A stretch of 64,000 nucleotides of DNA. Source: Candidatus Omnitrophota bacterium (GTDB lineage Bacteria; Omnitrophota; Omnitrophia; Omnitrophales; Aquincolibacteriaceae). Positions 25,983-44,110 of the stretch are shown here, piece by piece. Under the pieces are notes generated by a model, which did no database searches, was not told the origin of the DNA, and was given only the letters and a program-made list of their open reading frames with translations. The stretch spans positions 26,777 to 90,776 of the forward strand of contig CAIOAT010000038.1 in NCBI GenBank assembly GCA_903856085.1. The letters run 5' to 3'. A program made the translations under genes and the position numbers. Position 1 is the first letter of the stretch, and each line of letters starts with the position of its first letter.

Positions 25983-25998
25983 GTGCCCGCTGCTGATA

Positions 25999-27516
25999 TT
26001 ATGCATCGAAATAACTTTCATATCCCAAAGCATAGCGAGTCCCCGCAAGCTTGTTAAAAATCCTTAAAAGAAACAAAAACAAAATTGCCTCGACTGGAAA
26101 TTGGAACCGCTTAAATTTAAATCTTAAATAGACTAGCGGATACAGCAATTTATTGATAATAAAAACAGCCCACCGCTGTTTTTCAGGGATAAGTTTATAA
26201 AAATCCGGATTGGCAAGCGGTAAGTAAAAATTGGCAAAGATCTCAAGCGCCCACCGGTAATCTTTTTTAAACCACGGCGCATGGAACTTCCTGAGCGTGT
26301 ACGTGGCCCAGTCGGCCAACCGCTCAGGAGCCTTCAGACCATGCTGCAAAGCCTTTGCATAAAGTTCGGTCCCCGGATAGGGCGTATAAAAAAAGATCCG
26401 GGCTCGCAGCGATGGGTCGGTCAACTTCGCCTGACGGATCATATCGAGCGTGAGACGAATGTCTTTATCGGGATTATCCGGAAACCCCACCATCGTTGAA
26501 AAAAGCGGCGTGATCCGGTGCCGTTTCAACAACGCAGCAAACCGAAGATTATCTTCAACCTTGGCTTCCTTGGCGATCAGATCCAGAACTTCCTGATCTC
26601 CGGACTCGGCCCCGATGTAAACCTGCCGGCACCCGGACCTATAAAGAAGCTCCAGATCTTCCTCCTTGAAGATCTTCAAAAAAAGACCGGCATGAGCGCT
26701 CGTATCCCACAAAAGATCCAATTTCTGGTCGATGAGTTCCTTTGCCAATTCCAGAGCAAAGGCTTTATTGACAAAAAAGTTGTCGTCGTCAAAGGTAACG
26801 CTGTCGATCCGCGCCTGTTTCTTAAAAAACCTCAGGTCCGTGATCACATCTGCCACTTTTTTCCGGTACCATTTCCGGCCATAGATCTTTGCAACGCAGC
26901 AGAACTTACAATTGTAAGGACAGCCATGACTGCAAAAATAACCGATACATCGATTGGAGTAAGCGCTTTTAAAAACATACGGGTTGAAATCTAGCAACCG
27001 ATAATCCACTTCCGGAAATTGGTTGATATCCTGGAAACTGGCGGGAGGATTGACGAGGATCTTGTCTTTCTTTTTAGAGCCCACGCCCGGAACACCGGAA
27101 GGGTCACGTGATGCCATCAATTCTTCCACAAGCTTTTGAAAAGGCATCTCCCCTTGGCCGCAAATCACGTAATCCACATAAGGCTCGATCAACACCTGTT
27201 CGGGCAAAAGTGTCGCGTGCCACCCGCCCCAAACAACGGGAACATCGATGAGCTTTTTGACCGCTTGGGAGAACCGGATACCGCCCAAGATCTGATGACC
27301 GGTCATCGCGCTTACACCGGCCAAAAGCAATCGGTCTTTGACCGATTCAAGGATCGGGAGATAATCCCGAGAAGTCTGTTCATTAATGAAAATAACTTCC
27401 AGACCTTTTCCGCGGATCATGCGCTCGAGATACAGCAGCGCATAAGGAATTCGTCCCCGCTGTTCACCCTGCCAAGGCGAAGGATAGAACAAAACGATCA
27501 CATTCTTCTCAGACAT
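25999..27516 (-). CDS. B12-binding domain-containing radical SAM enzyme (class B radical SAM)
   Basis: The N-terminal B12-binding Rossmann region (IVLFYPSPWQG..) precedes the radical SAM cluster CSHGCPYNCKFC. The start is reassigned to the ATG at 27516. Confidence 0.8.
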   Translation of the reverse strand: MSEKNVIVLFYPSPWQGEQRGRIPYALLYLERMIRGKGLEVIFINEQTSRDYLPILESVKDRLLLAGVSAMTGHQILGGIRFSQAVKKLIDVPVVWGGWHATLLPEQVLIEPYVDYVICGQGEMPFQKLVEELMASRDPSGVPGVGSKKKDKILVNPPASFQDINQFPEVDYRLLDFNPYVFKSAYSNRCIGYFCSHGCPYNCKFCCVAKIYGRKWYRKKVADVITDLRFFKKQARIDSVTFDDDNFFVNKAFALELAKELIDQKLDLLWDTSAHAGLFLKIFKEEDLELLYRSGCRQVYIGAESGDQEVLDLIAKEAKVEDNLRFAALLKRHRITPLFSTMVGFPDNPDKDIRLTLDMIRQAKLTDPSLRARIFFYTPYPGTELYAKALQHGLKAPERLADWATYTLRKFHAPWFKKDYRWALEIFANFYLPLANPDFYKLIPEKQRWAVFIINKLLYPLVYLRFKFKRFQFPVEAILFLFLLRIFNKLAGTRYALGYESYFDA

Positions 27517-27580
27517 GGGACTCCTTGAACTCCTTGATGAAAATATGTGACAGTCCCGTATTGGCCACGCGGAACTGCGG

Positions 27581-28495
27581 TCAACGCTTTCGAGCAACCA
27601 CAATCATTCTCCCCGCCCCCCACGGACAAAGCAAATAGCCCGCGAGCTGACAGATCATAAATTTCAACCCATGGGGTAGTGAGTTGAAACATTGCGCTAA
27701 TATTTTTTGAATGCCGGGAGCAGCATGCAAAGCATGATAGCGAATACTCCGTATCATATCCTCCGCGACCACCTCCCCCTGGATGGAAATCTCGCAAAAT
27801 CCAATGCCCTTTAAGATCCTGGACAATCCCCCCTTCGTAAAATGCACCCTGTGGCGAGGCAAATCAAACCCATGCCAAAACTTCCCGAATTTTTTCGCTT
27901 CCCAGGAGTCCATCCGGGGAAGCTTTAAAAATAGAATCCCTCCCCGTGCAAGCCCCTTCTGATAAATCTTCTCAAGACATTCGCGGAATCCATCGAGATG
28001 CTCCAACACATGCCTTGCAACAATGACATCCCACGGCCTTTCAAACCGCATCTCCGAAGCGAACACCTGATTGAGATGAATGTCATATTGGCTCGCCGCG
28101 AATCTTACTCCTTGCCCCCCCGGCTCAATCCCAGACACCTCAAACCCGCGATCTTTTGCCGCGCGAAGGAATTCCCCTCGTCCAGCGCCCACCTCAAAAA
28201 GAAACTTCTGCCCCGGATCTAAATACGCAGAGATCTTTTTCAGATCACTTCCGTATTTAATCTTTTGCAAAAACCCCCAAAATGTTTTTTTGGGAACATA
28301 CGCTTCAAAATCGTCGGGATAATAGATCGAAAATTCATCCGGGGGCAATGCCGGAAAACTGTACCCAATCTCACAGATGCTACAATAGCTGACACCAAAA
28401 GCCGGCGATCGACCGTCCAGCAAAAAAAAATCGGCTCCGTCGTTGAACAAAACCTTCGTCATGCCACCACAGATCCGGCATTCTTTTATGTCCAT
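27581..28495 (-). CDS. Class I SAM-dependent methyltransferase with an N-terminal zinc-ribbon
   Basis: CRICGG...CSICE is a zinc ribbon. Motif I is LFEVGAGRGEF. The acidic motif is DVIVARHVLEHL. Confidence 0.7.
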   Translation of the reverse strand: MDIKECRICGGMTKVLFNDGADFFLLDGRSPAFGVSYCSICEIGYSFPALPPDEFSIYYPDDFEAYVPKKTFWGFLQKIKYGSDLKKISAYLDPGQKFLFEVGAGRGEFLRAAKDRGFEVSGIEPGGQGVRFAASQYDIHLNQVFASEMRFERPWDVIVARHVLEHLDGFRECLEKIYQKGLARGGILFLKLPRMDSWEAKKFGKFWHGFDLPRHRVHFTKGGLSRILKGIGFCEISIQGEVVAEDMIRSIRYHALHAAPGIQKILAQCFNSLPHGLKFMICQLAGYLLCPWGAGRMIVVARKR

Positions 28496-28528
28496 AAAAA
28501 CTTCAACACCCTTCCCTTCAAATCATCT

Positions 28529-29695
28529 TTAAAGCTGTTGGTACACTTCGTGGATCCTTTGGCCGACCGCGTTCCAGGACAGATGCTCAACGGCTCTTTG
28601 ACGGGCTTTTTCTCCGAGATTCTTACAGGAAGCCGGATTTTGTATCGCCCATAGGATCTTCGCAGCCAGAGATTGAGCATCCTCCCTCTCAGCAAAAATA
28701 CCGCATTCCGCCAAGATCTCACGCGAGACAGAACGGTCAAAAGCAACCGTCGCCATTCCCATCGCCATATAGTTATAGATCTTTCCATCCCCTTCCGTGA
28801 CCGCGATCTTGGGGGCCACGGCAATATCCGATAAAGCCAGATACTCCGGTAGCAAGGCATAATCCACGCGCCCCAAAAACTTCACATGGTCTGCAATGCC
28901 GTACTGGTCACAGAGTGTCTTATAAGTCTCAATATTGGGATAACCGATCACGATGAACTGCGTCTGGAGAATCTCAAGGGCAACTGTCCGAAACGCTTGG
29001 AACATAAGATCCACCCCCTGATAAGACTCCAAAAGCCCCATGTAAAGAACCCTCGGCTTCGATCGATCGATGCCCACGCGCTCGGCTAATGCCAAAGGGA
29101 ATGGCCGGGGATAAAAAACATCCGTGTCCACTCCATCGCGCACATTCCTCTTCCGTTGCGGGGAGACCCCGAAAGATCCCAGTTCTTTCATCATGCTTTC
29201 CGATTGAGTGATCACAAAAAACCATCCGGCGATCCGCCGTTCCAAAAAAGAAAAGAATTGATGACGAAGTCCGCGTTTCCGGATGAAACGATGCTGCAAC
29301 AATTCCCCGGTCAAGGAACCTTGCATATCAAAAAGATATTTTGTTTTTCTGAAAAAAATGCGGCAGAAACGGGCAATGAGCGCTCCTTCATGGAGGTGGG
29401 CATGGATCACATCCGGCTTGAACTTAAGGATCGTTCGAATGACCGTAGCCGTTAAAAAAGGCAGAAGCAATATTTTGCTAAAACTCGGACCCGCCGAAAG
29501 CTTGTGGTACCAAGGCAGGCAAAAACACCTTACGATGGAAATGCCGGGGACGTCCCGACCGATCCCGTAGGTGCAAAGAACAACCTCGACATTTTCTTTT
29601 TGAAGCGCTTTGATCTCTTCATAGATCTGAACATGGCAGCCGCGGTCCGCGAAGAAAGGAGTGGGGGCGATCATGAGAACTTTCATTGCAGGCAA
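28529..29695 (-). CDS. Glycosyltransferase family 4 (GT-B, Glycos_transf_1)
   Basis: 388 aa. The N-terminal GT4 fold is MKVLMIAPTPFFADRGCHV. The C-terminal E-x7-E-like region is LGLLESYQGVDLM..EGDGKIYNYMAMGMATVAFD. Confidence 0.8.
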   Translation of the reverse strand: MPAMKVLMIAPTPFFADRGCHVQIYEEIKALQKENVEVVLCTYGIGRDVPGISIVRCFCLPWYHKLSAGPSFSKILLLPFLTATVIRTILKFKPDVIHAHLHEGALIARFCRIFFRKTKYLFDMQGSLTGELLQHRFIRKRGLRHQFFSFLERRIAGWFFVITQSESMMKELGSFGVSPQRKRNVRDGVDTDVFYPRPFPLALAERVGIDRSKPRVLYMGLLESYQGVDLMFQAFRTVALEILQTQFIVIGYPNIETYKTLCDQYGIADHVKFLGRVDYALLPEYLALSDIAVAPKIAVTEGDGKIYNYMAMGMATVAFDRSVSREILAECGIFAEREDAQSLAAKILWAIQNPASCKNLGEKARQRAVEHLSWNAVGQRIHEVYQQL

Positions 29696-29711
29696 ACAAG
29701 ATCCTTGCGGA

Positions 29712-30857
29712 TCACCTTAGAAATTCCAGGATTTTTTCAGAGACATAAGCCACTTCCTCATCCTTCAGCCTCAAGTGGAGCGGAAGGCTCACGGCTTCGC
29801 GCGAAGCCTTTTCAGCATTCGGACATGTTCCCAAAGCATACCGGTACATGGGATATTCCGAATTAATCCGGTAATGGACTCCCGGAAAGATATCGTGCTT
29901 ATTCAAAAAAAGGATCAATTCATTACGGGAATTTTCAGAAACGCGGATCTGGAATAAATGACGGGAGGACAGACAATCCGGAAGATATTCGGAAAAATGG
30001 ATCTGTTTGTGTTTGCCCAGCCGGCGTTCGTAAATTCCGCATAGCTCCCGCCGCCGTTTATTACCCTCTTCCAAATACTTTAGCTGCACCAGACAGATCG
30101 CGGCCATCACGGAATTGCCGTGGGCTTTCAGCCCGACATGAGGAACATCGTATTCCCATTTATAATTCCCCCTCTCCGAACCTGTGCCTGACCTCAAAAA
30201 AGTGTCCTTGTCGATCCCAAGCCACCCTTCCATGCGAACGCGAACATCCAACGCCCCGTCACAAAAACAGATCATCCCCGAATCCGCCGACGGAAGATTT
30301 TTCACGGCCTGAAAAGAAAAAACCGTGCAGTCGATACCATGCCCCACATGCTTTTCCTGATAATAAGTACCGGCCATATGCGCCGCATCAAGGATCAGCT
30401 TTAAATTTCTTTTTTTGCAGAGATCCCTCACATCCTTTAATCTGCCGGCATTCCCGGCCATCCCGACGAACATCACAGCTCTTGTTCTGGGCGTGATCCT
30501 TTGCTCAATCGAATGGGGATCAAGGCATAACGTCTCATCCACATCCGCAAAAACCGGACGCAACCGCTCATAGAGGATCGCATGGTTGGTGGACACAAAG
30601 GTCAGGGGCGTGGTGATCACTTCGTCTCCATCCTTCCAACCCAACTCGTCCTTAAAGATCTTTAAAGCCAGATGCAACCCGACTGTATTCGAGTTAAGAA
30701 AATAAGCAAAGGGCAGTCCTGTGTGCTTTTTCCAAGCGTCCTCAAATTGGTTTGTTTTAAAGCCAATGCCCGTCCACCCGACCTCAAGACATTCCCGGAT
30801 CTCCGCGAGACATTCTTCCACATGGAATTGAGGCGCGAACAGTTGTATCTTGCTCAT
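29712..30857 (-). CDS. DegT/DnrJ/EryC1/StrS-family PLP-dependent sugar aminotransferase
   Basis: 381-aa fold-type I aminotransferase. The PLP lysine context is FSFQAVKNLPSADSG. The gene overlaps the upstream GT2 gene by 4 nt. Confidence 0.8.
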   Translation of the reverse strand: MSKIQLFAPQFHVEECLAEIRECLEVGWTGIGFKTNQFEDAWKKHTGLPFAYFLNSNTVGLHLALKIFKDELGWKDGDEVITTPLTFVSTNHAILYERLRPVFADVDETLCLDPHSIEQRITPRTRAVMFVGMAGNAGRLKDVRDLCKKRNLKLILDAAHMAGTYYQEKHVGHGIDCTVFSFQAVKNLPSADSGMICFCDGALDVRVRMEGWLGIDKDTFLRSGTGSERGNYKWEYDVPHVGLKAHGNSVMAAICLVQLKYLEEGNKRRRELCGIYERRLGKHKQIHFSEYLPDCLSSRHLFQIRVSENSRNELILFLNKHDIFPGVHYRINSEYPMYRYALGTCPNAEKASREAVSLPLHLRLKDEEVAYVSEKILEFLR

Positions 30858-31810
30858 TGGCCGCTGTCCGTTCTCTCAAAAACTTCCTGGACATTGTAGG
30901 GTCTATCTTTGGTATTGGCGTAATAACTCTTGGAAAGCATATCCGCGATCAATCCTAGGACAAAAAGCAGCACGCCGGTCAGAACGAGAAAGGCAGACAG
31001 GATCGGCCATGCGGTGTGGCCTATTTTCCCCAATAAAAGATAAAGATAGAGAGCGTAAAGGAAAGTCACAAATCCGAGCGCTATGGATACCAATCCCATG
31101 CCTCCCAGAAGATGCAGCGGGCGCACCGCATATTTGTTCCAGAACCATACCGAGATCATATCGACAAACCCCTTCAGGGCTCGCCGCCAATCATACTTGG
31201 TTTTCCCGTATTTTCTCGGCCGGTGATTCACGACGATCTCTCCGACCCGGAAGCCTTTGATCTTTAAAATCGCCGGGATAAAGCGGTGCATTTCTCCATA
31301 GAGATCGATCTGTCGGAAGCATTCCTTTTTATAGACCTTAAGGGAGCAACCGCTATCATGAATGCCGTCCTGAATGAGAAACCCTTTGAGAAAATTAGCG
31401 GTCCTTGAGACGAACCGTTTAAGAAAGGGATCCATTCTTTTCTTCCGCCATCCGGAGACAACATCAAGGCCATTCTCTTGGAGATACTGGATCAATTTGG
31501 GGATATCATGCGGATCATTTTGTCCATCTCCGTCCATGGTAATCACGAGAGGATGTCGGGCTTGCTTGATCCCGGCATCGAGCGCAGCGGTCTGTCCAAA
31601 ATTACGCCGGAAACGGATCACCTTGACAGGGGCCAATGATTGGGCGACTTCGAAAGTCTTATCCGTCGAGCCATCATCCGCTAAAATAATTTCGTAGATA
31701 TAGCGGTTCTCCTCACAAACAGATTTTATCTCGCGAAAAATCTCCGGGATATTCTCTGCTTCGTTAAAAACCGGGATGACGATCGAGACAGAATCTATAG
31801 CATCTTTCAA
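30854..31810 (-). CDS. GT2 polyprenol-phosphate sugar synthase (GtrB/ArnC-like) with two C-terminal TM helices
   Basis: VSIVIPVFNEAENI..ILADDGSTDKT..MDGDGQNDPHDIP is the DXD region. The C-terminal helices are LHLLGGMGLVSIALGFVTFLYALYLYLLL and ILSAFLVLTGVLLFVLGLIADML. Confidence 0.75.
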   Translation of the reverse strand: MKDAIDSVSIVIPVFNEAENIPEIFREIKSVCEENRYIYEIILADDGSTDKTFEVAQSLAPVKVIRFRRNFGQTAALDAGIKQARHPLVITMDGDGQNDPHDIPKLIQYLQENGLDVVSGWRKKRMDPFLKRFVSRTANFLKGFLIQDGIHDSGCSLKVYKKECFRQIDLYGEMHRFIPAILKIKGFRVGEIVVNHRPRKYGKTKYDWRRALKGFVDMISVWFWNKYAVRPLHLLGGMGLVSIALGFVTFLYALYLYLLLGKIGHTAWPILSAFLVLTGVLLFVLGLIADMLSKSYYANTKDRPYNVQEVFERTDSGQ

Positions 31811-31834
31811 AGTCAGACCTCCTTTGAGATCCTG

Positions 31835-32491
31835 CTAGGATTTGAAACCCGCGAGAAAAAACTGCGCGTTGTGTGTCGCTTCGAACTCACGAATGGCTTT
31901 TTCTTCCTTGAGGGTAATCCCGATATCATCGAGCCCGAGAAGGAACCGCTCTTTGACCGACGGATCGATCTCGAAGCGGAAAATTTCATCGCCCGTAGCG
32001 GTGTGCACCATGATGGTTTGATCCATCAAATGGATGGTCGCCTCAAGACCCGGATCGCGTTGAACCAATTGGAAGATCTTCTCGACTTCGGCCTCGGAAA
32101 GCTCAATGGTTAAAAGACCGTTCTTGAAACTATTATTCCTGAAGATATCCGCAAACCCCGGGAGACGATCTTTCCCTTCCCCGGACCATGGGGCAATGAC
32201 CACCCGAAAACCATACTGACAGATCGCCCAAACCGCATGTTCACGACTGGAACCGCATCCAAAGTTGTTTCGAGCGACCAGGATCGTCGCATTTTGATAC
32301 TCTTCCCGGTTCAGAATAAATTCCGGATTGTTTTTTCCTCCGGGAAGATACCGCCAATCATAAAAAAGCGATTCTCCGAATCCCGTGCGAGCAATAGATT
32401 TCAAAAATTGTTTGGGAATGATCGCGTCCGTATCGACATTCGCACGATCCAGCGGCAGGATCACACCTCTAAAATTCTCGAACGCCTTCAT
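31835..32491 (-). CDS. leuD: 3-isopropylmalate dehydratase small subunit
   Basis: 218 aa, [31 protein letters not shown]... It is the typical LeuD/aconitase swivel domain and directly follows leuC. Confidence 0.9.
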
Positions 32492-33906
32492 GCTCCCACC
32501 TTCAGCTTTCTAATATCCACAAAATGCCCTGCCACGGCAGCCGCAGCCGCCATTTCAGCACCCACAAGATGCGTGCGGCCATCCTTGCCCTGGCGCCCCT
32601 CAAAATTACGGTTCGAGGTTGAAGCGCAACGCTCCTCGGGTTTCAGCTGGTCTGGATTCATGGCAAGGCACATGCTGCATCCGGATTCGCGCCATTCACA
32701 CCCCGCCGCCAAAAAGACCTTATCAAGCCCCTCGGCCTCGGCTTGCTTTTTCACCTGTTGGGAACCCGGCACCACAAGCACGCGAACATTCTTGGCGACT
32801 TGATGCCCTCTAAGATATTTTGCGGCAGCACGCAAATCTTCGATGCGACCGTTCGTACAACTTCCGATAAAAACCGTGTCGATCTTGATGTCCGTGATCA
32901 GCATCCCGGATTTCAGCCCCATGTACCTCAAGGATTGCTCAACATCCGCCTTGCTGTAGCCCGGAACTTTATCCGGTTCGGGTACACACCCGTCCACATC
33001 TACGACCATGCCGGGGCTTGTCCCCCAAGTCACTTGCGGTGCAATCTTGGACGCATCGATCGTAAGCTCTTTGTCGAATTTCGCTCCTGGATCGGTGAAA
33101 AGGGTTTTCCAATAAGCCAGGGCTTTTTCAAAATCTTTCCCCTTCGGCGCAAAGGGCCGATTCCCTGCGCCAATATACCGAAATGCCACATCATCCGGCG
33201 CGATCATGCCCGCGCGAGCACCAGCCTCGATCGTCATATTGCAAACGGTCATACGCGCTTCCATGGAAAGAGCGCGTATCGCCTCGCCGCAATATTCGAT
33301 CGCACAACCCGTTGCACCTGCGGTCCCGATCATCCCGATCAGTTTAAGAACCATATCTTTCGCGGAGACAGGTTCTTTCACCCGCCCTGTGAATTCAACT
33401 TTAAAAGTCTTGGGTTTTTTCTGCAACAAACACTGGGTCGCGAGCACGTGCTCCACCTCGGAAGTCCCGATCCCGAACGCAAGCGCGCCAAAAGCACCGT
33501 GCGTCGCAGTATGGGAATCACCGCAGACAATGGTCGTTCCGGGAAGTGTGATTCCGAGCTCCGGACCAACGATATGCACCACCCCCTGCTTGTCGCTATG
33601 AAGATCAAAAAGTGTCACGCCGAATTCTTTGCAATTTTTGGCCAGCGCTTCGATCTGGGCCTTGGCAATGAGGTCTTTGATATTGAAACGATCGACGGTA
33701 GGAACATTGTGGTCCATCGTGGCAAAGGTAAGCTCCGGATGACGAACCTTACGACCCGAAAGCCGCAGCCCTTCGAACGCCTGCGCGCTTGTCACTTCGT
33801 GAACCAATTGCCGGTCAATGTAGAGAAGCGCCGTTCCGTCCGGGAACGTTTTCACTACGTGCGAGTTCCATATTTTTTCGAAGAGTGTTTTTGGCATAAG
33901 CCTCAT
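32488..33906 (-). CDS. leuC: 3-isopropylmalate dehydratase large subunit
   Basis: 472 aa with aconitase-family motifs (..VCGDSHT.., ..[11 protein letters not shown].., ..SMCLAMNPD..). Confidence 0.9.
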
Positions 33907-35907: not shown

Positions 35908-35936
35908 AACATCCCAACAGTGAACATTGAGGCATT

Positions 35937-37727
35937 ATGAATCTAAAATCCCTGTCCACGCGAACCTGTTTGCTCCTGATCCTGTTCTTCGGGATCGCAG
36001 CCTATTCCAACACCCTCACCAGCTCGTTCCAGTTTGACGATGTCCCGACCATCTTAGAAAATCATTCCCTTCAGCCTCTAAATTTCGGAAAACTTTGGCA
36101 TTTCCATCCCGTTCGATTCATCACAAATCTCAGCTTTGCCTTCAACCTCTATCTGGCGGGTTTCCAAACATGGAGCTTTCACATTTCCAATCTCCTCATA
36201 CATCTCTTCACTTCGATGATCGTCTTCCAACTCACACTATGGATCCTCAGAACCCCTTCCGTGGAAAATGAGATCCCATCTTCACGACAGCATCTTTTCG
36301 CTTTGATCACGGCTCTTTTATTTACAGCACATCCCTTGCAGACCGAAGCAGTGACCTATATTGTGCAACGCGCGACTTCGCTGGCAGCCCTTTTTTATTT
36401 AGCGGCGCTCTGGATGTATCTCAAGGCGCGTCTTGAAAGCCCGCGTCATTATCTTCTCGCCCTCTGTTTCACGGCAGCGGCCATGTTTACCAAGGAGATC
36501 AGTTTCACACTCCCTTTCGCCATTCTACTTTCGGAATTGTTCTTTTTTCCAATATCTGAAAAAGAACCCCTCAGTAAAAAACTCCTCTGCTGGACTCCTT
36601 TCGCAGCATTTTTGTTTATCATCCCGTTGCTTTATCTGACGAATGCTTACCTGCTTGTGGACGGAGGTGGATCCATTAACATCCTCCCAACCACTGCTAA
36701 CAACATCTCCAGGTGGGATTACCTCCTGACCCAGTTCCGCGTCATGAGAACCTATCTGCGACTTCTTGCTTTCCCGGTGAACCAATGCCTTATTTATGAT
36801 TATCGCTCTTCATCGGGCTGGGGAGATCCCGATGTATGGGCTGCGTTTTCATTACTCCTTAGCATCTTCCTCCTGAGCCTCACTTTTTTAAGAAAAAATC
36901 GGCTCATTTCCTTTGGTATTTTATGGTTCTTTTTGACCCTCAGCGTCGAGTCGACGATTATCCCCCTTCCCGATTTTATATTCGAACACCGCCTTTACCT
37001 TCCCATGTTCGGCTTTGCTCTCTTTTTGACATCTCTTTTATGGATGATCTCAAAATCTATCAAACTTTTTACGGCCATTTCACTGTCCGTCGTTGTTGTC
37101 TTTTCAAGCATGACTTATTTCCGTAATGAGGTATGGAAAAGCAAGGTTTCGTTAGCGCTAGATACCGTGAAAAAATCACCTCTCCTGGGCATCTCTTACG
37201 CCGGGCTAGCCGATGCCTATAGCAGAGAAACGGGAGATGATAAAACCGCGGCCACCTGTTATCAAAAAGCATTGGAATTGGGCTTTGCCACTCCTTGGGT
37301 TTATGCAAACTTGGCCGCCGTTTATTCCCGCCTTGGCGAATACGAAAAAAGCCTTCATTTTCAAAAAATAATCTCGTCATCTTCGGTTTTAAAAAAGAAC
37401 CTTTCCTTTTATGACAATCATGCCCTTGCTCTGATGAATGCCGGCAAGAACTCAGAAGCCATCGAGATGCTTAAGGATGACATGCGAATGAGTCCTGAGA
37501 ATCCTTTGCTATACATCCAGCTTGGAGAAGCTTATCGCCGAATACAACGAGGGGATGATGCCGTTTTTTCTTTCCGAAAAGCGATTGAGTTGGCACCGCT
37601 ATCCAAGGAAGGGTATCAGTCTCTCGCTCTATTCTATGAATCAAAAGGAGATAAACAAAAAGCTGTGGCTGTGTTGGTGGAATACTTGAAGTGCAAAAAG
37701 AAACACACACCTTTGTTTGGCGATTAA
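35937..37727 (+). CDS. TMTC-like GT-C membrane glycosyltransferase with C-terminal TPR repeats (paralog B, tandem duplicate of A)
   Basis: The first ~390 aa are about 90% identical to paralog A, including the 20 nt upstream (cagtgaacattgaggcattATG). The TPR region is diverged. The conserved tail is ..GDKQKAVAVLVEYLKCKKKHTPLFGD. Confidence 0.75.
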   Translation: MNLKSLSTRTCLLLILFFGIAAYSNTLTSSFQFDDVPTILENHSLQPLNFGKLWHFHPVRFITNLSFAFNLYLAGFQTWSFHISNLLIHLFTSMIVFQLTLWILRTPSVENEIPSSRQHLFALITALLFTAHPLQTEAVTYIVQRATSLAALFYLAALWMYLKARLESPRHYLLALCFTAAAMFTKEISFTLPFAILLSELFFFPISEKEPLSKKLLCWTPFAAFLFIIPLLYLTNAYLLVDGGGSINILPTTANNISRWDYLLTQFRVMRTYLRLLAFPVNQCLIYDYRSSSGWGDPDVWAAFSLLLSIFLLSLTFLRKNRLISFGILWFFLTLSVESTIIPLPDFIFEHRLYLPMFGFALFLTSLLWMISKSIKLFTAISLSVVVVFSSMTYFRNEVWKSKVSLALDTVKKSPLLGISYAGLADAYSRETGDDKTAATCYQKALELGFATPWVYANLAAVYSRLGEYEKSLHFQKIISSSSVLKKNLSFYDNHALALMNAGKNSEAIEMLKDDMRMSPENPLLYIQLGEAYRRIQRGDDAVFSFRKAIELAPLSKEGYQSLALFYESKGDKQKAVAVLVEYLKCKKKHTPLFGD

Positions 37728-38084: not shown

Positions 38085-39503
38085 GTGCCGAAAGTTTTTT
38101 TTGCCACACCGCCTATCAGCATGGAAGAACGCTACGGTTCGCTAGCCGGGGCCGGAAGTTGCCTTCCCTCGCTTGGCATTCTTTTTCTTGCCGCGATAAC
38201 CCGAAAAGAAGGCTTCCCAACCGCGTTGGCCGATGCCTCGGCGCTCAGTCTCACAGGGAAGGAGTTACTGCAACGTGTTGAGTCTGAGCAACCCGATGTT
38301 CTCGGACTTTCAGCCACGACCTTTTCCATTTTTCATGCCGCCAAATTTGCGGCCCTGGTAAAAGAACGGTTCCCCGCCATGACCATCATCATCGGAGGCC
38401 CCCACGTTTCAGCAGCACCTCATGAAACGATGGAACGCTTTCCTGTTTTTGAAGTTGCGGTTCTGGGAGAAGGCGAGGAAACGATCATCGACCTTCTGGA
38501 GACTATGGATACCCATGCCCCCTTGGCGAATATACCGGGAACCATCCTGCGTAGCGACGGAAAATTGGTAACGACCCAACGCCGAGAGTTTCTAAAGAAT
38601 CTCGATTCACTGCCCTATCCAGCTTGGGATCTATTGGAAGGATTTCCAGAGCGTTATCGACCCGCTCCCTTCAAAGTACGCCGGTTCCCGGCCGCCTCAC
38701 TTGTAACCTCGCGTGGTTGTCCCAACCAATGCATTTTCTGCGACCGATCCGTATTTGGAACAAGTTGTCATGCCTTTTCGGCCGAGTATGTGACAGGGAT
38801 GATTCGTCATCTTGTCGAGCACTTCGGGATCCGGGAATTCAGTTTTGAGGACGACACCTTCATTACTTTTAAAAAACGTCTTGTGGCCATTTGTCAGGGC
38901 ATTATCGACCTTGGAATTGATATTTCCTGGACCTGCCTGGGACGGGTGAACGGTGTAGACAAAGAGACCCTGGAGTTGATGCGGCGGGCTGGTTGCTGGC
39001 AGATCAGTTTCGGTATCGAGAGCGGTTGCCAGGAGATCCTTACCACCATTCACAAGAACATCACCCTTGAACAGATTCAAAATGCCGTGGCCCTTTGCCG
39101 GAATGCAGGAATTCTCAGCAAAGGCTTTTTTATCGTCGGCCATCCGGGAGAAACACGGGAGACTCTGTCACGAACTATGGACTTTGCCTTAAAGCTTCCC
39201 CTCGATGATATCAGTGTTACCATGCTGACCCCTTTCCCCGGCACCGAGATATACGAACGGGCTGCGGAATTCGGAAAGTTTGACAGTGACTGGTCCAAGA
39301 TGAATCTGCTCAATGTCGTATTCATCCCACATGGACTCACCCGTGAGGATTTGGAAGAGTACCAGCACAAGATATTACGAAAGTTTTATTTGCGTCCGAG
39401 GATTATCTTGGGTTACCTTCGACGCCTTATTGCAAATCCTTCTATGTCAAAAGGGATACTGCTTGGAGCAAAGGCGTTTTTCCGCAGCGTCAATAAAAAA
39501 TAG
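38085..39503 (+). CDS. B12-binding domain-containing radical SAM enzyme
   Basis: A GTG start at 38085 is proposed (GGGGAGA Shine-Dalgarno, then VPKVFFATPPI...). The ORF-track ATG at 37923 adds an unlikely 54-aa extension. The cluster motif is CPNQCIFCDRSVFG. Confidence 0.7.
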   Translation: MPKVFFATPPISMEERYGSLAGAGSCLPSLGILFLAAITRKEGFPTALADASALSLTGKELLQRVESEQPDVLGLSATTFSIFHAAKFAALVKERFPAMTIIIGGPHVSAAPHETMERFPVFEVAVLGEGEETIIDLLETMDTHAPLANIPGTILRSDGKLVTTQRREFLKNLDSLPYPAWDLLEGFPERYRPAPFKVRRFPAASLVTSRGCPNQCIFCDRSVFGTSCHAFSAEYVTGMIRHLVEHFGIREFSFEDDTFITFKKRLVAICQGIIDLGIDISWTCLGRVNGVDKETLELMRRAGCWQISFGIESGCQEILTTIHKNITLEQIQNAVALCRNAGILSKGFFIVGHPGETRETLSRTMDFALKLPLDDISVTMLTPFPGTEIYERAAEFGKFDSDWSKMNLLNVVFIPHGLTREDLEEYQHKILRKFYLRPRIILGYLRRLIANPSMSKGILLGAKAFFRSVNKK

Positions 39504-39536
39504 CAATTCATAAATAGCGATGAGGAGGTTACCCGT

Positions 39537-40919
39537 ATGCATTTTGTCTTTGTTCAACCGCCCATAGGTAAGAGAGTAGTCAGTATAATACCCGCTTTAA
39601 GCATCCCTTACCTTGCTGCTATTGTGGAAGGAAAGCAAATTCAGGTATCGGTGGTTGCATCTGACGCTGAAGGTTTAAGCGTAGAAGAAACAGCGGAGAG
39701 AGTGATTGAGTTACGTCCGGATGTTGTCGGATTTTCAATTGGAACACTCGCTGCTCTTAATTCATACGAAATCGCCGGGCTGGTGAAAAAGAAAATTAGC
39801 GATGTGATAACTATTGCCGGGGGACATCATGCTACGATATTCCCGGAGGAGGTATTAACCAGCGGGATTGATTTTGTCGCAATTGGAGAGGGGGAAAAAA
39901 CGATTGGTGAATTTTCTGACTACCTCTTGAAAAATAAAAAGCTAGAAGAGGTTCGCGGAATTGCATATCGTCAGGGAGAGAGGATTAAATACAATGACAC
40001 CCAAACAGTCATTAAAAACTTGGACGATTTACCGCTGCCAGCATGGCATTTAATGCCAATCGACAAGTACAAAAGTGTCTTTCAAAAGACGCTGCGAAAC
40101 TTACCTATTGTGACATCACGTGGGTGTCACGGACAATGCATTTTTTGTTACAAAGGACTATTTGGAGATACGTTCCGAATGAGGTCGCCCAAAAACATTG
40201 TTAGTGAAATAAGATACTTGAAGGATAATTTCGGCATAAGTTCGTTCGATTTCATTGATGATCATTTCGCGACTATTCCTAAACGAGCAATAGAAATATG
40301 CGCATTGATAAAAAAGGAGGGGATCAATTTAGCCTGGGGACTCCCATCAGGGATACGCGTTGATGTGGTTACTGAGGAATTGTTAAACGCATTGAAAGAA
40401 GCGGGGTGCTATCGTATTGGATTTGGCGTTGAATCAGGAAATGACCGAGTGTTAAAAAACATCAAGAAAAATACTACGAAAGATCAAATTCGCAAAGCCG
40501 TACAATTGGCGCGAAGTATGAATTTTACAGTATATTGTTTTTTTATTATTGGCAATCTCGGCGAAACAGAGCGGTCGATTAATGACACCATTGAATTTGC
40601 TAGGGAACTTGACCCCGATATTGCACAATTCTCAGTAGCGGTGCCATATCCTGGGACTGAGATGTTTCGGATGTTAAAACAACAGGACAGAATTATCAGT
40701 TTTGATTGGAACGATTACGATTATTTTTCATCCGGTCGTCAAATTTTTAAACATGAGCATCTTGATTATCATGTCATCCAAAAAAAATACGCTGAAGCAT
40801 ACAGAAGTTTCTATTTAAGGCCAACGTACATCATAAAACAATTAAAGGCTTTAAAAAATTTAAACGAGATGAAGAAATTAATACAATCGTTTTTCCGATT
40901 ATTCGGTCTATTAAAATAA
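39537..40919 (+). CDS. B12-binding domain-containing radical SAM enzyme, AT-rich composition
   Basis: MHFVFVQPPIGK.., cluster motif CHGQCIFCYKGLFG. Composition and codon usage are visibly AT-richer than the flanking genes. Confidence 0.8.
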   Translation: MHFVFVQPPIGKRVVSIIPALSIPYLAAIVEGKQIQVSVVASDAEGLSVEETAERVIELRPDVVGFSIGTLAALNSYEIAGLVKKKISDVITIAGGHHATIFPEEVLTSGIDFVAIGEGEKTIGEFSDYLLKNKKLEEVRGIAYRQGERIKYNDTQTVIKNLDDLPLPAWHLMPIDKYKSVFQKTLRNLPIVTSRGCHGQCIFCYKGLFGDTFRMRSPKNIVSEIRYLKDNFGISSFDFIDDHFATIPKRAIEICALIKKEGINLAWGLPSGIRVDVVTEELLNALKEAGCYRIGFGVESGNDRVLKNIKKNTTKDQIRKAVQLARSMNFTVYCFFIIGNLGETERSINDTIEFARELDPDIAQFSVAVPYPGTEMFRMLKQQDRIISFDWNDYDYFSSGRQIFKHEHLDYHVIQKKYAEAYRSFYLRPTYIIKQLKALKNLNEMKKLIQSFFRLFGLLK

Positions 40920-41105
40920 TGCGTTGCAATGTTGTACTATTCTACGAGACGTCGATACATAGACATTTTTAAAGAAGTTTGTATAGCGCAAGAAGTCGGT
41001 AAAACGTCTTCTTTCGGCCCATAAAAGCATCGTTGCTGGACTTGAGCGTAAAGTTTTAGCGTACACAATGGATTAAATTATAATTAGCTCTATGAATCAC
41101 ATAAC

Positions 41106-42122
41106 ATGAAAACTTCGATTATCATCGTAAACTGGAATGGTAAAGAGTTTCTCCCTGAGTGCTTGGACAGTCTGCACACTCAGACGTATGACGACTTTGA
41201 AACCATCGTGGTCGACAATGGTTCGCGTGACGGCTCCGTGGAGCTGCTCCGTGGATCCTACCCTTGGGTCCGTCTGGTTCAACTGGATTCAAATACCGGG
41301 TTCGCAAGCGGCAACAATGCGGGGCTCTCTGCCGCTCGAGGCAGTAGGTACATTGTGACCCTCAACAACGACACCCGTGTGGATCGTCACTGGCTGGCCG
41401 AACTGACTGCAGCCGCCGAGAGTTCCCCTCAGATGGGAATGGTCGCTAGCCGCATCTGCGACTGGGACAACCCGGACCAGATCGACTCCCTTGGAATTGC
41501 CATTTGCCGCGACGGTATGTCCCGTGGCAGCAAACGGCATGCTTGTTTTTCTGCGCTTTCAATTGCCAAAAACGAGGCTATCCTCCTGCCCAGTGCCTGC
41601 GCCGCTTTGTACCGAAGAGAAATGATTAATGAAATTGGTTTTTTCGACGATGATTTCTTTGCTTATTGCGAGGATATTGATCTGGGACTGAGGGGCCGAC
41701 TGGCGGGCTGGCAGGCGGTGCTTGCACGCGACGCCATCGTGTATCATCGCTACTCACGCAGCGGCGGAGTATTTTCTCCCATGAAGCTGTACCTGGTAGA
41801 ACGAAATCATTTCTGGGTTGCGCTGAAATGTTTTCCGATTAATATGCTACTCACTCTGCCGTTCTGGACCATGATTCGCTATCTGGTGCAGGCACGACTG
41901 GTGTTGGAGGCAAGAGGCGCAGGAGCCCAGTTTCGCAACGCATCATCGGGCGATTTGATCAAGGCTGTCCTGCGGGGAATCATGGATGTAGCACGCGGAC
42001 TGCCGTCCCTCCTCCGCAAACGCCATGCAACACTAACGAAACAACGCCTTTCACCCAAAGAGATGCGTCAGCTTTTAAAAAAATATAAACTTACGTTCAG
42101 GGAGCTCCTCGATGCCGGTTGA
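41106..42122 (+). CDS. Glycosyltransferase family 2 (GT-A)
   Basis: SIIIVNWNGKEFLPECLDSL..TIVVDNGSRDGS..DDDFFAYCEDIDL is the DXD region. Confidence 0.8.
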   Translation: MKTSIIIVNWNGKEFLPECLDSLHTQTYDDFETIVVDNGSRDGSVELLRGSYPWVRLVQLDSNTGFASGNNAGLSAARGSRYIVTLNNDTRVDRHWLAELTAAAESSPQMGMVASRICDWDNPDQIDSLGIAICRDGMSRGSKRHACFSALSIAKNEAILLPSACAALYRREMINEIGFFDDDFFAYCEDIDLGLRGRLAGWQAVLARDAIVYHRYSRSGGVFSPMKLYLVERNHFWVALKCFPINMLLTLPFWTMIRYLVQARLVLEARGAGAQFRNASSGDLIKAVLRGIMDVARGLPSLLRKRHATLTKQRLSPKEMRQLLKKYKLTFRELLDAG

Positions 42123-42744
42123 CACGGGTTTGAACAAGGAAGGAATGATCTTTCAGCGGGATCAATACGCCAAGGGGGGCCTTGGAGTACGCTACTGGGA
42201 CTATCGCGATCGCAGCGCGCTTCAGCATGTCATCGGCAACGATATCCTGGATGCCGGTTGCGGCGAAGGGATTACCCTGGAAAAACTGGTGAAACTCTTC
42301 CCCAAGGCCCATGTGGTCGGCATTGATACTGAACCGGAAAATCTTGAGATCTGCCGCAAACATGGTTTACCCGCACAAGAGGGATCACTCTATGCTCTCC
42401 CTTTTGCCGATGCATCGTTTGATACGGTTCTCTTCTCCGAGGTAATCGAACACCTGGATACGCCGGAGAAGGCTCTGTCTGAAATTTTCCGGGTGCTACG
42501 CCCCGGCGGAAGGGTCATCATCATTTTCCCAAATGACCGCACTTTCTTGCTGGCACGTCTGGCAATAGGCATGATTCGCGAGGCATTCTATAATCCCGGG
42601 CATGTCCGGCAGTGGACGCCCCGTCAGATCCGTAAATCACTAAACGCCATTGGGTTTGTGCCGATTGCCGGAAGCAGCATTCCTTTTTTATTTTGGTCCA
42701 TAAGCTTACATCATATTGCGGTGGCCGAAAAAACCCATGATTAA
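42112..42744 (+). CDS. Class I SAM-dependent methyltransferase (Methyltransf_11-like)
   Basis: Motif I is ILDAGCGEGITL. Motif II is FDTVLFSEVIEHL. Motif III is LRPGGRVII. Confidence 0.75.
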   Translation: MPVDTGLNKEGMIFQRDQYAKGGLGVRYWDYRDRSALQHVIGNDILDAGCGEGITLEKLVKLFPKAHVVGIDTEPENLEICRKHGLPAQEGSLYALPFADASFDTVLFSEVIEHLDTPEKALSEIFRVLRPGGRVIIIFPNDRTFLLARLAIGMIREAFYNPGHVRQWTPRQIRKSLNAIGFVPIAGSSIPFLFWSISLHHIAVAEKTHD

Positions 42745-44110
42745 GTTTCTCTGGATCAATGCTATAGATTCCGCTTCGGAGGTTGAAACCCGATATCCTC
42801 ATTTGGGGATTGGCTACCTGGTTGCGTCACTCAAGAGATCCTTCGGAGATGATGCCTTTCTTTTCCAGGTTGTCAGTTCTGATATCGAAACGGCTCTAGA
42901 CAAATTCCAGCCTGACATCGTAGGGATTTCTGCTGTAAGTCAGAACTACGGACGTGCCATCCTCTATGCGGCCGAGGCACGACGACGGGAAATCCCAGTC
43001 CTTGTCGGCGGAGTTCACATCTCGTTTCTGCCCGAAACGCTTTCTCCCGATATGACAGTAGGCTGCATGGGTGAGAGCGAAGAAACTATCATCGAACTAA
43101 TGCGAATTTATCGTGAAACGCAATGTTTTGAACCAAAAAAACTGGCCTCCGTTGCGGGTATTATCTACCATGCTGAGGATGGCAGCCTCGTTACCACAAA
43201 ATCTCGCCCCCCAAAAATGGATCTCGATTCTCTCGCTATCCCGGACCGGAGTCTTTTCAAAGAATCATCGCATACGTATCTTTTTACTTCCCGGGGATGT
43301 CCGTACCGCTGCTCTTTTTGCGCATCTTCCCGCTTTTGGGATACGGTAAGATTTTTTTCCGCCGAACGGGTTATCCATGAGATCGAGGAACTCATGAAAA
43401 ACTCGGGCGTTACTTTTATCAGCTTTTTTGATGATCTTTTTGTTGCAGACAAAAAGCGTTTTCACAGGATCGTCGAGCTACTTGAACAGAAAAAGATTAT
43501 TGGAAAGGTCAAATTCTCCTGTTCTCTTCGGACCAATACCATCACAGAAGATGTCGTGGCCGGTTTAAAGCGCATGGGCATTGTGTCCGTCGGCATGGGG
43601 CTTGAATCGGGAAATCAAAGGGTGCTAACCTGGTTGAAGGGTGCCGGAATTACAGTAGAACATAACCGGCGCGCAGTGACATTGCTCCGGGCAAACGGGA
43701 TCATGGCAAACGCATCGTTTGTCATCGGCACTCCGGATGAAACGAAAAAGGAAATCCTGGATACTCTGCATTTTATAAAATCAGTTGGCTTGGGTCTTTT
43801 TGATGTCTATGTCCTGACGCCCTTTCCAGGAACCCCAGTATGGGAATCAGCAAAAAGCCGGGGGCTTGTCTCCGAGGGACCGGAAATGGACTGGAGCCGC
43901 TTGAATGTCAATTTTGAGGTTTCTCCTGACAAAGCCATTATCCTTTCGGAAGTCCTATCCCGCGATGAGATCGTGGAACTTTACGAAAAGTTTCGCCGGT
44001 ACCGTTTTCTTCACAATGTCGCCACGATCTGGCGGCATCCGATGCTCACGGACCTGCCCCGCTATGCCTTTAAATTGTTACGCGAAAAAATCCTGAGGGC
44101 CATACGATGA
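42737..44110 (+). CDS. B12-binding domain-containing radical SAM enzyme
   Basis: The start is reassigned to the ATG at 42737 (MIKFLWINAID..), which overlaps the methyltransferase stop by 8 nt. The cluster motif is CPYRCSFCASSRFWD. Confidence 0.8.
   Translation: MIKFLWINAIDSASEVETRYPHLGIGYLVASLKRSFGDDAFLFQVVSSDIETALDKFQPDIVGISAVSQNYGRAILYAAEARRREIPVLVGGVHISFLPETLSPDMTVGCMGESEETIIELMRIYRETQCFEPKKLASVAGIIYHAEDGSLVTTKSRPPKMDLDSLAIPDRSLFKESSHTYLFTSRGCPYRCSFCASSRFWDTVRFFSAERVIHEIEELMKNSGVTFISFFDDLFVADKKRFHRIVELLEQKKIIGKVKFSCSLRTNTITEDVVAGLKRMGIVSVGMGLESGNQRVLTWLKGAGITVEHNRRAVTLLRANGIMANASFVIGTPDETKKEILDTLHFIKSVGLGLFDVYVLTPFPGTPVWESAKSRGLVSEGPEMDWSRLNVNFEVSPDKAIILSEVLSRDEIVELYEKFRRYRFLHNVATIWRHPMLTDLPRYAFKLLREKILRAIR

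Follow-up and report, generated by a model that had tools for sequence, protein, structure and literature searches.

Four enzymes with the architecture of class-B radical S-adenosylmethionine (SAM) enzymes, here named rSAM-A to rSAM-D, are encoded among glycosyltransferase genes in a stretch of 64,000 nucleotides of Candidatus Omnitrophota bacterium (assembly GCA_903856085.1, contig CAIOAT010000038.1; the whole stretch that was analysed is called the window in the following). The chances appear to be even that these rSAMs act in the cytoplasm as tailoring enzymes of carrier-lipid-linked sugars, with C-methylation as the probable reaction, and that the sugars are afterwards transferred by glycosyltransferases of the GT-C type outside of the membrane. 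A functional link of the rSAMs to glycosylation as such is quite probable, and C-methylation as the specific reaction is a more tentative proposal. The four rSAMs would be cytoplasmic, probably membrane-peripheral tailoring components of two carrier-lipid surface-glycosylation operons. In a first step, polyprenyl phosphate would receive a sugar on the inner side of the membrane from a GT2 of the ArnC/GtrB/DPM1/GacI type; in operon 1 this sugar would be an amino sugar made by a short-chain dehydrogenase/reductase (SDR) and an ArnB-like aminotransferase, and in operon 2 a sugar of the N-acetylhexosamine (HexNAc) type, made by a GacI-like GT2 together with its DUF2304/GacJ partner. [quoted passage not shown] After flipping, enzymes that combine a GT-C-like membrane domain with TPR repeats would pass the tailored sugar to periplasmic or surface acceptors, which would be picked by the TPR domains.

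The first-pass annotation of this DNA had described four genes with a B12-binding region and a CxxxCxxC cluster, and all four were recovered. The B12-binding domain (PF02310, 45-74 bits, gathering cutoff 32.1 bits) and the radical SAM domain (PF04055, 70-92 bits, gathering cutoff 29.5 bits) are above the Pfam cutoffs in each of the four open reading frames (ORFs), and the cluster motifs can be read in the translations (CSHGCPYNCKFC, CPNQCIFCDRSVFG, CHGQCIFCYKGLFG and CPYRCSFCASSRFWD), as can a GGxH and a G(E/Q)GE/GESE motif in all four. The domain architecture of the four rSAMs is thus certain. The lengths of rSAM-B, rSAM-C and rSAM-D (472, 460 and 457 aa) are the same in independent gene calls on identical metagenome contigs. 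Pairwise identities are 25-32%, with rSAM-B and rSAM-C as the closest pair, and judged from their sequences the four are old paralogues. The class-B fold was compared by model for rSAM-A, the AlphaFold2 (AF2) model of which was computed from 40 homologues and reached a mean predicted local distance difference test score (pLDDT) of 92.6. In a Foldseek search of the PDB, this model matched TsrM, MgmA, AprD4, OxsB, TokK and CysS at E-values of 1e-23 to 1e-16, led by TsrM (2e-23) and MgmA (1.5e-22; entry 9CCB, which is MgmA according to PMC12931638), with TM-scores of 0.6-0.7 to the solved class-B enzymes. The C-termini of rSAM-B, rSAM-C and rSAM-D form strongly amphipathic basic helices (hydrophobic moment 0.55-0.65) and rSAM-A ends in a hydrophobic tail, which is consistent with binding at the membrane surface.

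The four genes had been taken for one cluster, but they are split by the housekeeping genes leuC and leuD, which lie between two divergent operons. On the minus strand, operon 1 (31810 to 22740) has the order ArnC-like GT2, ArnB/DegT-like aminotransferase, GT4, methyltransferase (Methyltransf_23), rSAM-A, TPR770, SDR. On the plus strand, operon 2 (34105 to 47404) has the order TPR600, TPR596, rSAM-B, rSAM-C, GT2, methyltransferase (Methyltransf_11), rSAM-D, a 240-aa GT2, DUF2304, TPR699. The neighbours that had been named before are real by their Pfam domains, namely three GT2, one GT4, one DegT aminotransferase and two class-I SAM methyltransferases. In its overall make-up, the locus resembles two glycosylation systems of the carrier-lipid kind, each with a GT2 followed by GT-C enzymes with TPR domains, into which tailoring enzymes have been inserted.

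This view of the locus is based on the partners of the rSAMs. The first GT2 of operon 1 has ArnC as its best PDB match (9bhc, 2e-40, residues 5-311), followed by GtrB (5ekp) and DPMS (5mlz). For the 240-aa GT2 of operon 2, the best NCBIfam model is PpgS, ahead of AglJ and Dol-P-hexose transferase, and in the PDB only DPMS (5mlz) was matched at E<1e-8. The enzymes matched by the two GT2s are polyprenyl-phosphate sugar synthases throughout; as the scores of both are below the equivalog cutoffs, the assignment is at superfamily level only. The DUF2304 ORF starts 13-52 bases past the stop of this second GT2, depending on the start codon. Proteins of this family (GacJ/Rv3632) form a complex with GacI/PpgS and are stimulating partners, and the polyprenyl-phosphate sugar made by GacI/PpgS is then consumed outside of the membrane by a GT-C enzyme (bioRxiv 10.1101/180810).

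Candidates for such a GT-C enzyme are the four TPR proteins, the N-terminal about 400 aa of which span the membrane multiple times and carry a conserved DD motif after the first transmembrane segment (TM1). In TPR770, which aligns with the TPR699 family, this motif reads F-I-L-V-DD, and within the TPR699 family D34 is invariant and D35 near-invariant. An AF2 model of residues 1-410 of TPR699 (pLDDT 86.6, predicted TM-score 0.91) has AglB, PglB, ArnT and STT3 as its best PDB matches in Foldseek (probability 1.0, TM-score 0.41-0.52), and all of the 12 top matches are GT-C enzymes or the related PIG-U at a probability of 0.99-1.0, with E-values that are weak (9e-4 and worse). The model indicates a GT-C fold for this domain. 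Several TPR699 homologues carry the JGI name 'protein O-mannosyl-transferase', and with relaxed thresholds Pfam gave only one sub-threshold PMT_2 match among the four N-terminal membrane domains (TPR596). TPR600 and TPR596 are 74% identical, and their membrane (catalytic) domains are nearly identical with strongly diverged C-terminal TPR regions, which suggests a shared donor and different acceptors. From the combination of a polyprenyl-phosphate-sugar synthase, DUF2304 and GT-C/TPR enzymes, a carrier-lipid-linked sugar rather than a nucleoside diphosphate (NDP) sugar is the probable substrate of the rSAMs. The earlier suggestion of radical chemistry on a glycan or a lipid acceptor, tied to the glycosyltransferases, hence stands as regards the functional link, which held up in family placement and co-inheritance, but it had overlooked this polyprenyl-phosphate/GT-C architecture.

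The rSAM genes are inherited together with glycosylation genes, as is seen from cassettes that are shared with relatives and from fusions to glycosyltransferase, Alg14 and methyltransferase domains. Homologues of rSAM-A form a tight family. The DegT-GT4-methyltransferase-rSAM-A part of operon 1 (cassette 1) recurs in the same order in a metagenome-assembled genome (MAG) of Spirochaetota (L092), in a MAG of Bacteroidetes (L093) and in a third locus (L095), with identities of 62-66% for DegT, 63-67% for GT4, 62-65% for rSAM-A and 47-52% for the methyltransferase. In L092 and L093, the rSAM-A orthologue is immediately preceded by that of the methyltransferase; in L095 the two are one gene away from each other, and the cassette there has three PMT_2/TPR proteins and a YfhO GT-C at its flanks. 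A homologue of TPR770 adjoins an rSAM-A-like gene in a further locus (L049). In relatives, the cassette is usually followed by AsnB and an MprF-type flippase-like gene. An MprF-type gene of this kind (LPG_synthase_TM) follows a B12-type rSAM, directly or after one gene, in L092, L093, L095 and L009, and its product may be the flippase of the pathway.

The genes of operon 2 have counterparts as well. For rSAM-C, 3387 homologues were found at E<1e-10, and a homologue with 74% identity is encoded in an uncultured Geobacteraceae MAG. One relative's locus (L004) contains orthologues of rSAM-C (77% identity), rSAM-D (49%), rSAM-B (42%, 420 bits) and the GacI-like GT2 (42%), together with DUF2304 and an orthologue of the generic GT2 of operon 2 (GT2_338; 198 bits), in shuffled order inside a Wzx-type polysaccharide cluster and with the rSAM-B orthologue next to the GacI/J-like genes. 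An IS66-family transposase is inserted in this rSAM/glycosylation cluster (16706-18127), which fits the gene order being shuffled relative to the window. GT2_338 has another orthologue in L011. In L006, two adjacent B12-type rSAMs are found with GT2, DegT and PIG-L, and three of them lie in a Woesearchaeota locus that also has AglB/STT3, two GT2s, a transferase of the WecA type and a Wzx flippase. A module of methyltransferase, rSAM, GT2 and rSAM is present in L079.

A broader scan covered 80 loci from GTDB species-representative genomes; it used an alignment of 12 sequences (A2), as one of 30 sequences (A1) was too diverse, and phmmer with single window sequences as seeds for the neighbours. 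In the first and the second kb from the rSAM, GT2 genes had a density of 0.116 and 0.086 per flank segment; farther out than 2 kb it was 0.01-0.05. In 14 loci a GT2 is directly adjacent on the same strand, and the best matches are polyprenyl-phosphate-sugar synthases for all seven adjacent GT2s that were scanned, which stem from Patescibacteria, Planctomycetia, Omnitrophota, Geobacter and Riflebacteria MAGs. At least two B12-type rSAM genes are present in 30 of the 80 loci. If the count is restricted to the 45 loci that are 15 kb or longer, two or more are seen in 22 and four or more in five, so that the description of four rSAMs within 18 kb as unusual was overstated; four copies are at the high end, yet typical of this rSAM family.

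Fusion proteins tie the rSAMs to sugar enzymes more directly. Alg14 is fused to a B12-type rSAM in P0022 and in a second representative, P0368 (66% identical), and in the locus L008 such a fusion is adjoined by an Alg13-like gene, a GT2 and a PMT_2 GT-C. In P0390, the rSAM is fused to a class-I methyltransferase. P0374 is an uninterrupted ORF of 1879 aa, as checked at the DNA level, with the order B12-rSAM, methyltransferase, GT2, methyltransferase, GT2, B12-rSAM, which is the parts list of operon 2. Given these fusions to Alg14, methyltransferase and GT2, a chance co-location is very unlikely. Predicted giant homologues of 1,500-2,300 aa with several B12-rSAM modules were also seen (P0370, P0375, P0376, P0396 and others), P0370 with five radical SAM domains and a SPASM domain. 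The radical SAM domain of another homologue, P0437, is interrupted by an intein with a LAGLIDADG endonuclease.

An incidental co-location, with rSAMs that are functionally unrelated to their glycosylation neighbours, is therefore close to refuted. Genes of glycosyltransferases are common, and leuCD between the two halves demonstrates that unrelated genes can be interspersed. The B12-dependent rSAMs are numerous, with 83,589 sequences in over 100 groups, of which the biggest are still unexplored (2026 review, PMC12931638). However, mere abundance does not fit a cassette that is kept across phyla at 47-67% identity, the overlapping start and stop codons in the window, a GT2 density that falls with distance from the rSAM, and the multi-domain fusion proteins.

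The family placement of the rSAMs was assessed by curated NCBIfam hidden Markov model scores and PDB searches, as a proxy for a phylogeny with GenK, Fom3 and HpnP. None of the four rSAMs reached the cutoff of any curated family. The HpnJ model (TIGR03471, cutoff 577.6) gave 227 bits for rSAM-B, 208 for rSAM-C, 117 for rSAM-D and 108 for rSAM-A, and it is the best family for rSAM-B and rSAM-C. With BchE (TIGR02026, cutoff 481), the scores were 210 (B), 196 (C), 152 (D) and 117 bits (A), with MgmA/QCMT (TIGR04014, cutoff 360) 142 (C), 124 (B), 112 (D) and 81 bits (A), and with the AprD4 family radical SAM diol dehydratases (NF033070, cutoff 500) 113 (B), 98 (C), 82 (D) and 80 bits (A). Across the four rSAMs, HpnR scored 70-117 bits (cutoff 650) and the ladderane-type family TIGR04072 97-111 bits (cutoff 360), and the score of BzaD likewise is far below its cutoff. 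There are also sub-threshold matches to ApyD and TIGR03975, models of families that act on ribosomally synthesised and post-translationally modified peptides (RiPPs). A firm clustering with lipid- or cofactor-modifying families, which would have spoken against a role in glycan modification, was thus not seen. The name 'anaerobic Mg-protoporphyrin IX monomethyl ester cyclase' (BchE) that JGI gives to homologues is therefore an over-annotation, given the 117-210 bits of the four rSAMs.

Each functionally characterised group of B12-dependent rSAMs includes C-methyltransferases, and the majority of the characterised rSAMs with a B12 domain are methylases (PMC12931638). C-methylation is hence the most probable reaction, and the presence of several rSAM paralogues next to O/N-methyltransferases fits a methylation at multiple sites.

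A number of points weigh against the proposed methylation of carrier-lipid-linked sugars. As stated, the matches to characterised families are all far below the cutoffs. Among the best PDB sequence matches of the four rSAMs (AprD4, MgmA/QCMT, TokK), AprD4 is the top match of rSAM-A, rSAM-B and rSAM-D; the Rossmann-like domain of this diol dehydratase binds no cobalamin, and the same holds for the similar domain of ArsL (PMC12931638). The architecture alone is therefore no proof of B12 dependence, and cobalamin use, which is presumed here for the four rSAMs, as well as methyl transfer are not assured. The GT2 and GT-C enzymes are assigned to superfamilies only, at scores under the NCBIfam and Pfam cutoffs, and the GT4 of cassette 1 has no obvious place in a scheme of three components. 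A flippase of the GtrA, Wzx, ArnE/F or MprF/LPG_synthase_TM type was not found among the scanned ORFs of the window, although relatives do carry Polysacc_synt or LPG_synthase_TM genes. A homologue of rSAM-A with 53% identity is found in a cluster for non-ribosomal peptide and polyketide synthesis (NRPS/PKS; L091, 10001-11557 of a 3.05 Mb contig), from which it follows that the rSAM-A family also serves secondary metabolism; this homologue adjoins a JmjC/cupin protein and a UDP-GlcNAc 2-epimerase. No GT2 was detected by single-seed phmmer in 53 of the 80 relatives' loci, which is weak evidence since this search under-detects divergent glycosyltransferase families.

In line with the AprD4 match, an alternative is that the substrate is likewise a sugar but that one or more of the four rSAMs catalyse a radical rearrangement and no methylation, be it a ring contraction to a carbocycle as proposed for HpnJ and Cds, a 1,2-diol dehydration or deoxygenation as with AprD4, or an epimerisation, in which case the class-I methyltransferases would supply all methyl groups. 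The set of PIG-L deacetylase, GT2 and two rSAMs in L006 would agree with this, as it resembles the HpnI/K/J set according to the roles that HpnI and HpnK presumably have, and HpnJ is the best curated family of two of the four rSAMs. HpnJ and Cds, which are also precedents for the proposed tailoring, have been suggested to act on lipid-linked sugars and to remodel them after the glycosyltransferase step (PMC13459092), and non-methylating B12-rSAMs fall into the largest, unexplored group (PMC12931638). The scores are however far below the cutoffs of HpnJ and AprD4, the characterised enzymes with a B12 domain mostly are methylases, and three or four paralogues per cluster fit regiospecific methylations better than multiple rearrangements of one sugar. 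A non-methylating chemistry is thus rather improbable, though it has to be taken seriously.

Another alternative concerns lipids as the substrates, which could be the polyprenol carrier, acyl chains of phospholipids or glycolipids, or a membrane-spanning lipid, and the proximity of the glycosyltransferases would then be due to an (amino)glycolipid product. Many characterised relatives are lipid enzymes, such as HpnP/R, the ladderane family, Tes, Mss, Gms and Gmm (PMC13459092), TIGR04072 gives scores for all four rSAMs, and the GT4 of cassette 1 weakly matches a GlcNAc-phosphatidylglycerol synthase (4e-11). The LPG_synthase_TM genes behind the rSAM-A orthologues and behind the B12-type rSAM of L009, and the amphipathic or hydrophobic C-termini of the rSAMs, could be read in the same way. 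Against this, no lipid family model reaches its cutoff, the cluster in the window has no genes for fatty-acid, isoprenoid or glycerolipid synthesis, the fusion partners are GT2, Alg14 and methyltransferase and not lipid enzymes, and the tightest partner is a GT2 of the polyprenyl-phosphate-sugar synthase type. It is therefore unlikely that the rSAMs modify lipids.

Even less likely is a modification of a protein or peptide, either of an acceptor protein of the GT-C/TPR enzymes or of a RiPP-like peptide, as known from MgmA/QCMT, Mmp10 and PoyC. In the PDB sequence searches, MgmA (9ccb) ranks first for rSAM-C and second or third for the other rSAMs, there are the sub-threshold matches to RiPP models, TPR domains usually bind proteins, and operon 1 is directly followed downstream by a pilus/type II secretion set in which four genes are prepilin-like. 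Nevertheless, the score of the MgmA family is at most 142 bits, the partners that are conserved across phyla are sugar enzymes and not peptides, and the cluster has no precursor-like short ORF and no genes for RiPP recognition, a protease or a transporter, the intergenic ORF scan having been unremarkable (no convincing precursor-like ORF in the gap at 37.7-38.1 kb).

The tailoring of carrier-lipid-linked sugars may extend beyond the window. With nearly, though not quite, even chances, there is a widespread functional class of B12-type rSAMs that act on polyprenyl-phosphate-linked sugars or lipid-linked oligosaccharides and install C-methyl groups or carbocyclic/deoxy rearrangements in the cell-surface glycans of anaerobes. 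The distribution of such a class would take in Desulfuromonadota, Spirochaetota, Bacteroidota, Planctomycetota, Omnitrophota, Patescibacteria and DPANN archaea, often with several of the enzymes per pathway and with some of them fused to GT2, Alg14 or methyltransferase.

The features of the locus are listed in Table 1. Neighbouring genes overlap by 4-11 bases at four junctions (GT2/DegT, GT2_338/methyltransferase, methyltransferase/rSAM-D and rSAM-D/GT2), with overlaps of 4 bases between the ArnC-like GT2 and the DegT start and between the GacI-like GT2 and the rSAM-D stop, and the overlap of the Methyltransf_11 gene with both of its neighbours suggests translational coupling. Promoter and terminator scans at 31.5-49.5 kb gave counts that did not exceed the shuffled expectation, and they were not used. 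The G+C content is 0.43-0.49 across most of 22000-50000 versus 0.49-0.53 in the flanks, with 0.52 in the leuCD bin; together with the 47-67% identity of cassette 1 to the cassettes of Spirochaetota and Bacteroidetes MAGs, this is consistent with a horizontal acquisition. The best PDB matches of the DegT aminotransferase are TlmJ and ArnB, the best NCBIfam matches of the SDR are TviC, GalE and LegB (all below cutoff), and a PDB search with the 304-aa methyltransferase of cassette 1 gave uncharacterised methyltransferases only. A reading of operon 1 as a true Arn pathway (4-amino-4-deoxy-L-arabinose on lipid A) was rejected: ArnC and ArnB are sub-threshold, the ArnA model gives 70 bits on the SDR, and the set is incomplete, as the ArnA formyltransferase and the ArnD deformylase were not found in the NCBIfam scan of the window.

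Table 1. Features of the two operons and of the genes that separate or adjoin them (coordinates in the window)
Feature	Position	Strand	Evidence and remarks
NAD-dependent SDR sugar epimerase/dehydratase, operon 1 last gene	22740..23714	-	PF01370 226 bits
TPR770, GT-C-like membrane domain + C-terminal TPR	23736..26048	-	TPR Pfam ~470-650; start codon uncertain
rSAM-A, class-B radical SAM architecture	25999..27516	-	505 aa; PF02310 45 bits, PF04055 70 bits; CPYNCKFC
Class-I SAM methyltransferase (Methyltransf_23), cassette 1	27581..28495	-	PF13489 62 bits
GT4 glycosyltransferase, cassette 1	28529..29695	-	PF00534 + PF13439
DegT/ArnB-like sugar aminotransferase, cassette 1	29712..30857	-	PF01041 273 bits; ArnB 204 bits vs 631 cutoff
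ArnC/GtrB-like GT2, operon 1 first gene	30854..31810	-	318 aa; ArnC full-length 157 bits vs 529 cutoff
leuD + leuC	31835..33906	-	above equivalog cutoffs; same arrangement on identical metagenome contigs
TPR600, GT-C-like + TPR, operon 2 first gene	34105..35907	+	TPR Pfam; multi-TM N-terminus, F-Q-F-DD motif
TPR596, GT-C-like + TPR, tandem duplicate of TPR600	35937..37727	+	PMT_2 22.7 bits vs 26.1 cutoff
rSAM-B, class-B radical SAM architecture	38085..39503	+	472 aa; PF02310 73 bits, PF04055 79 bits; CPNQCIFC
rSAM-C, class-B radical SAM architecture	39537..40919	+	460 aa; PF02310 74 bits, PF04055 92 bits; CHGQCIFC
GT2 glycosyltransferase (generic, GT2_338)	41106..42122	+	PF00535 91 bits
Class-I SAM methyltransferase (Methyltransf_11)	42112..42744	+	PF08241 90 bits; overlaps both neighbours
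rSAM-D, class-B radical SAM architecture	42737..44110	+	457 aa; PF02310 47 bits, PF04055 87 bits; CPYRCSFC
GacI/PpgS-like GT2 (polyprenyl-phosphate HexNAc synthase type)	44107..44829	+	240 aa; PpgS 108 bits vs 370 cutoff
DUF2304 small membrane protein (GacJ/Rv3632 family)	44881..45270	+	PF10066 88.7 bits vs 25.5 cutoff
TPR699, predicted GT-C-fold membrane glycosyltransferase domain + TPR	45305..47404	+	AF2 model, Foldseek
DUF6798 multi-TM membrane protein, convergent on operon 2	47390..48994	-	PF20604 36.6 bits; ~9 hydrophobic segments

The DUF6798 protein at the end of operon 2 has a weak EpsG match (E 0.0018), and a function as polymerase or as another GT-C is possible for it. On the same strand as operon 1 and directly downstream of it, a complete type IV pilus/type II secretion-like set is encoded (10019-22562, minus strand). 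Its members are a coiled-coil ORF of 510 aa, a PilM-like protein, a secretin, the ATPase T2SSE, the platform protein T2SSF, four proteins of the prepilin type (N_methyl; prepilin-like proteins at 10775-13559) and a response regulator. Candidate acceptors for the GT-C/TPR enzymes might be found in these (pseudo)pilins. A glucoamylase-like protein with CBM9 (7695-9869, minus strand) and an HlyD/OEP efflux pair (3186-6783, minus strand) are encoded upstream of this pilus set.

The component families are known, and sugar tailoring by class-B rSAMs is known from antibiotic pathways (GenK, GenD1, MoeK5), but nothing was found in the literature that links B12-type rSAMs to undecaprenyl-linked or O-antigen-type glycans or that describes them as recurrent components of polyprenyl-phosphate/GT-C envelope glycosylation, and roles for glycans or polysaccharides are not mentioned in the review on B12-rSAMs (PMC12931638). 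The locus and its relatives offer a concrete substrate hypothesis, i.e. the product of the adjacent polyprenyl-phosphate sugar synthase, and the rSAM family reaches Patescibacteria and DPANN archaea, the surface glycans of which are almost unknown. If the proposal is correct, radical C-H functionalisation would join the known repertoire of prokaryotic envelope glycosylation, and a first function could be given to a portion of the B12-rSAM sequence network's large unexplored region. Methylated sugars of an unusual kind in anaerobes would be explained as well, such as those in the S-layer glycan of Kuenenia, which is heavily methylated, with methyl groups that were inferred mainly from mass differences and positions that were not determined (PMC5088730). 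Many '+14 Da' modifications of glycans that are assumed to be O-methyl groups could then be C-methyl groups.

Among the known systems, the solved enzymes TsrM, MgmA/QCMT, TokK, OxsB, CysS and AprD4 share with rSAM-A the N-terminal Rossmann domain, the CxxxCxxC barrel and the helical C-terminal domain at sequence identities of 13-20%; the substrates of solved class-B enzymes are tryptophan, a protein glutamine, a carbapenem, a nucleotide and an aminoglycoside, and none of them comes from a glycosylation operon. Protein O-mannosyltransferases of the PMT/TMTC type, which are GT-C enzymes with TPR, resemble the four TPR proteins in the multiple membrane spans, the DD motif after TM1, the predicted GT-C fold and the C-terminal TPR, but PMT_2 is sub-threshold and detected in one paralogue only, and PMT/TMTC structures are not among the top Foldseek matches of TPR699. 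Like the rSAMs in the scheme proposed here, HpnJ (hopanoid cyclitol ether) and Cds (calditol synthase) have been suggested to remodel a sugar that was attached to a lipid by a glycosyltransferase. They differ in that the lipid is a membrane end product, whereas here it would be the polyprenyl-phosphate carrier, the HpnJ scores of 227 and 208 bits are far below 577.6, hopanoid genes are absent among the annotated ORFs of the 64-kb window, as are genes for glycerol dialkyl glycerol tetraethers (GDGTs), and Cds is likened by description.

The toolbox of cassette 1, with dehydrogenase/SDR, DegT, class-I methyltransferase, class-B rSAM and GT4, is like that of gentamicin tailoring (GenD2/GenS2/GenN/GenD1, GenK) and of MoeK5. 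It is shared with garosamine tailoring, which uses a dehydrogenase, a DegT aminotransferase, an N-methyltransferase and a class-B C-methyltransferase. The gentamicin enzymes reportedly act on an already attached sugar, which thereby becomes an amino sugar with C-methyl and N-methyl groups. The Csp3 methyltransferases of PMC12931638 include GenK, GenD1 and MoeK5. The likeness is one of toolbox and not of sequence, and gentamicin and moenomycin belong to the secondary metabolism of actinomycetes, whereas here an envelope glycosylation with polyprenyl-phosphate-sugar synthases and GT-C/TPR enzymes is proposed in a genome of the anaerobe type. With GacI-GacJ-GacL, PpgS-Rv3632-Rv3779 and ArnC-ArnT, finally, the locus shares a DUF2304 protein downstream of a GT2, which here is putatively of the polyprenyl-phosphate synthase type, and a predicted GT-C-fold transferase, and as in the Arn case an ArnB-like aminotransferase adjoins the ArnC-like GT2. 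These similarities are below the equivalog cutoffs, and the known systems have no rSAMs, whereas the locus described here combines rSAMs with four paralogous GT-C-like proteins that carry C-terminal TPR arrays.

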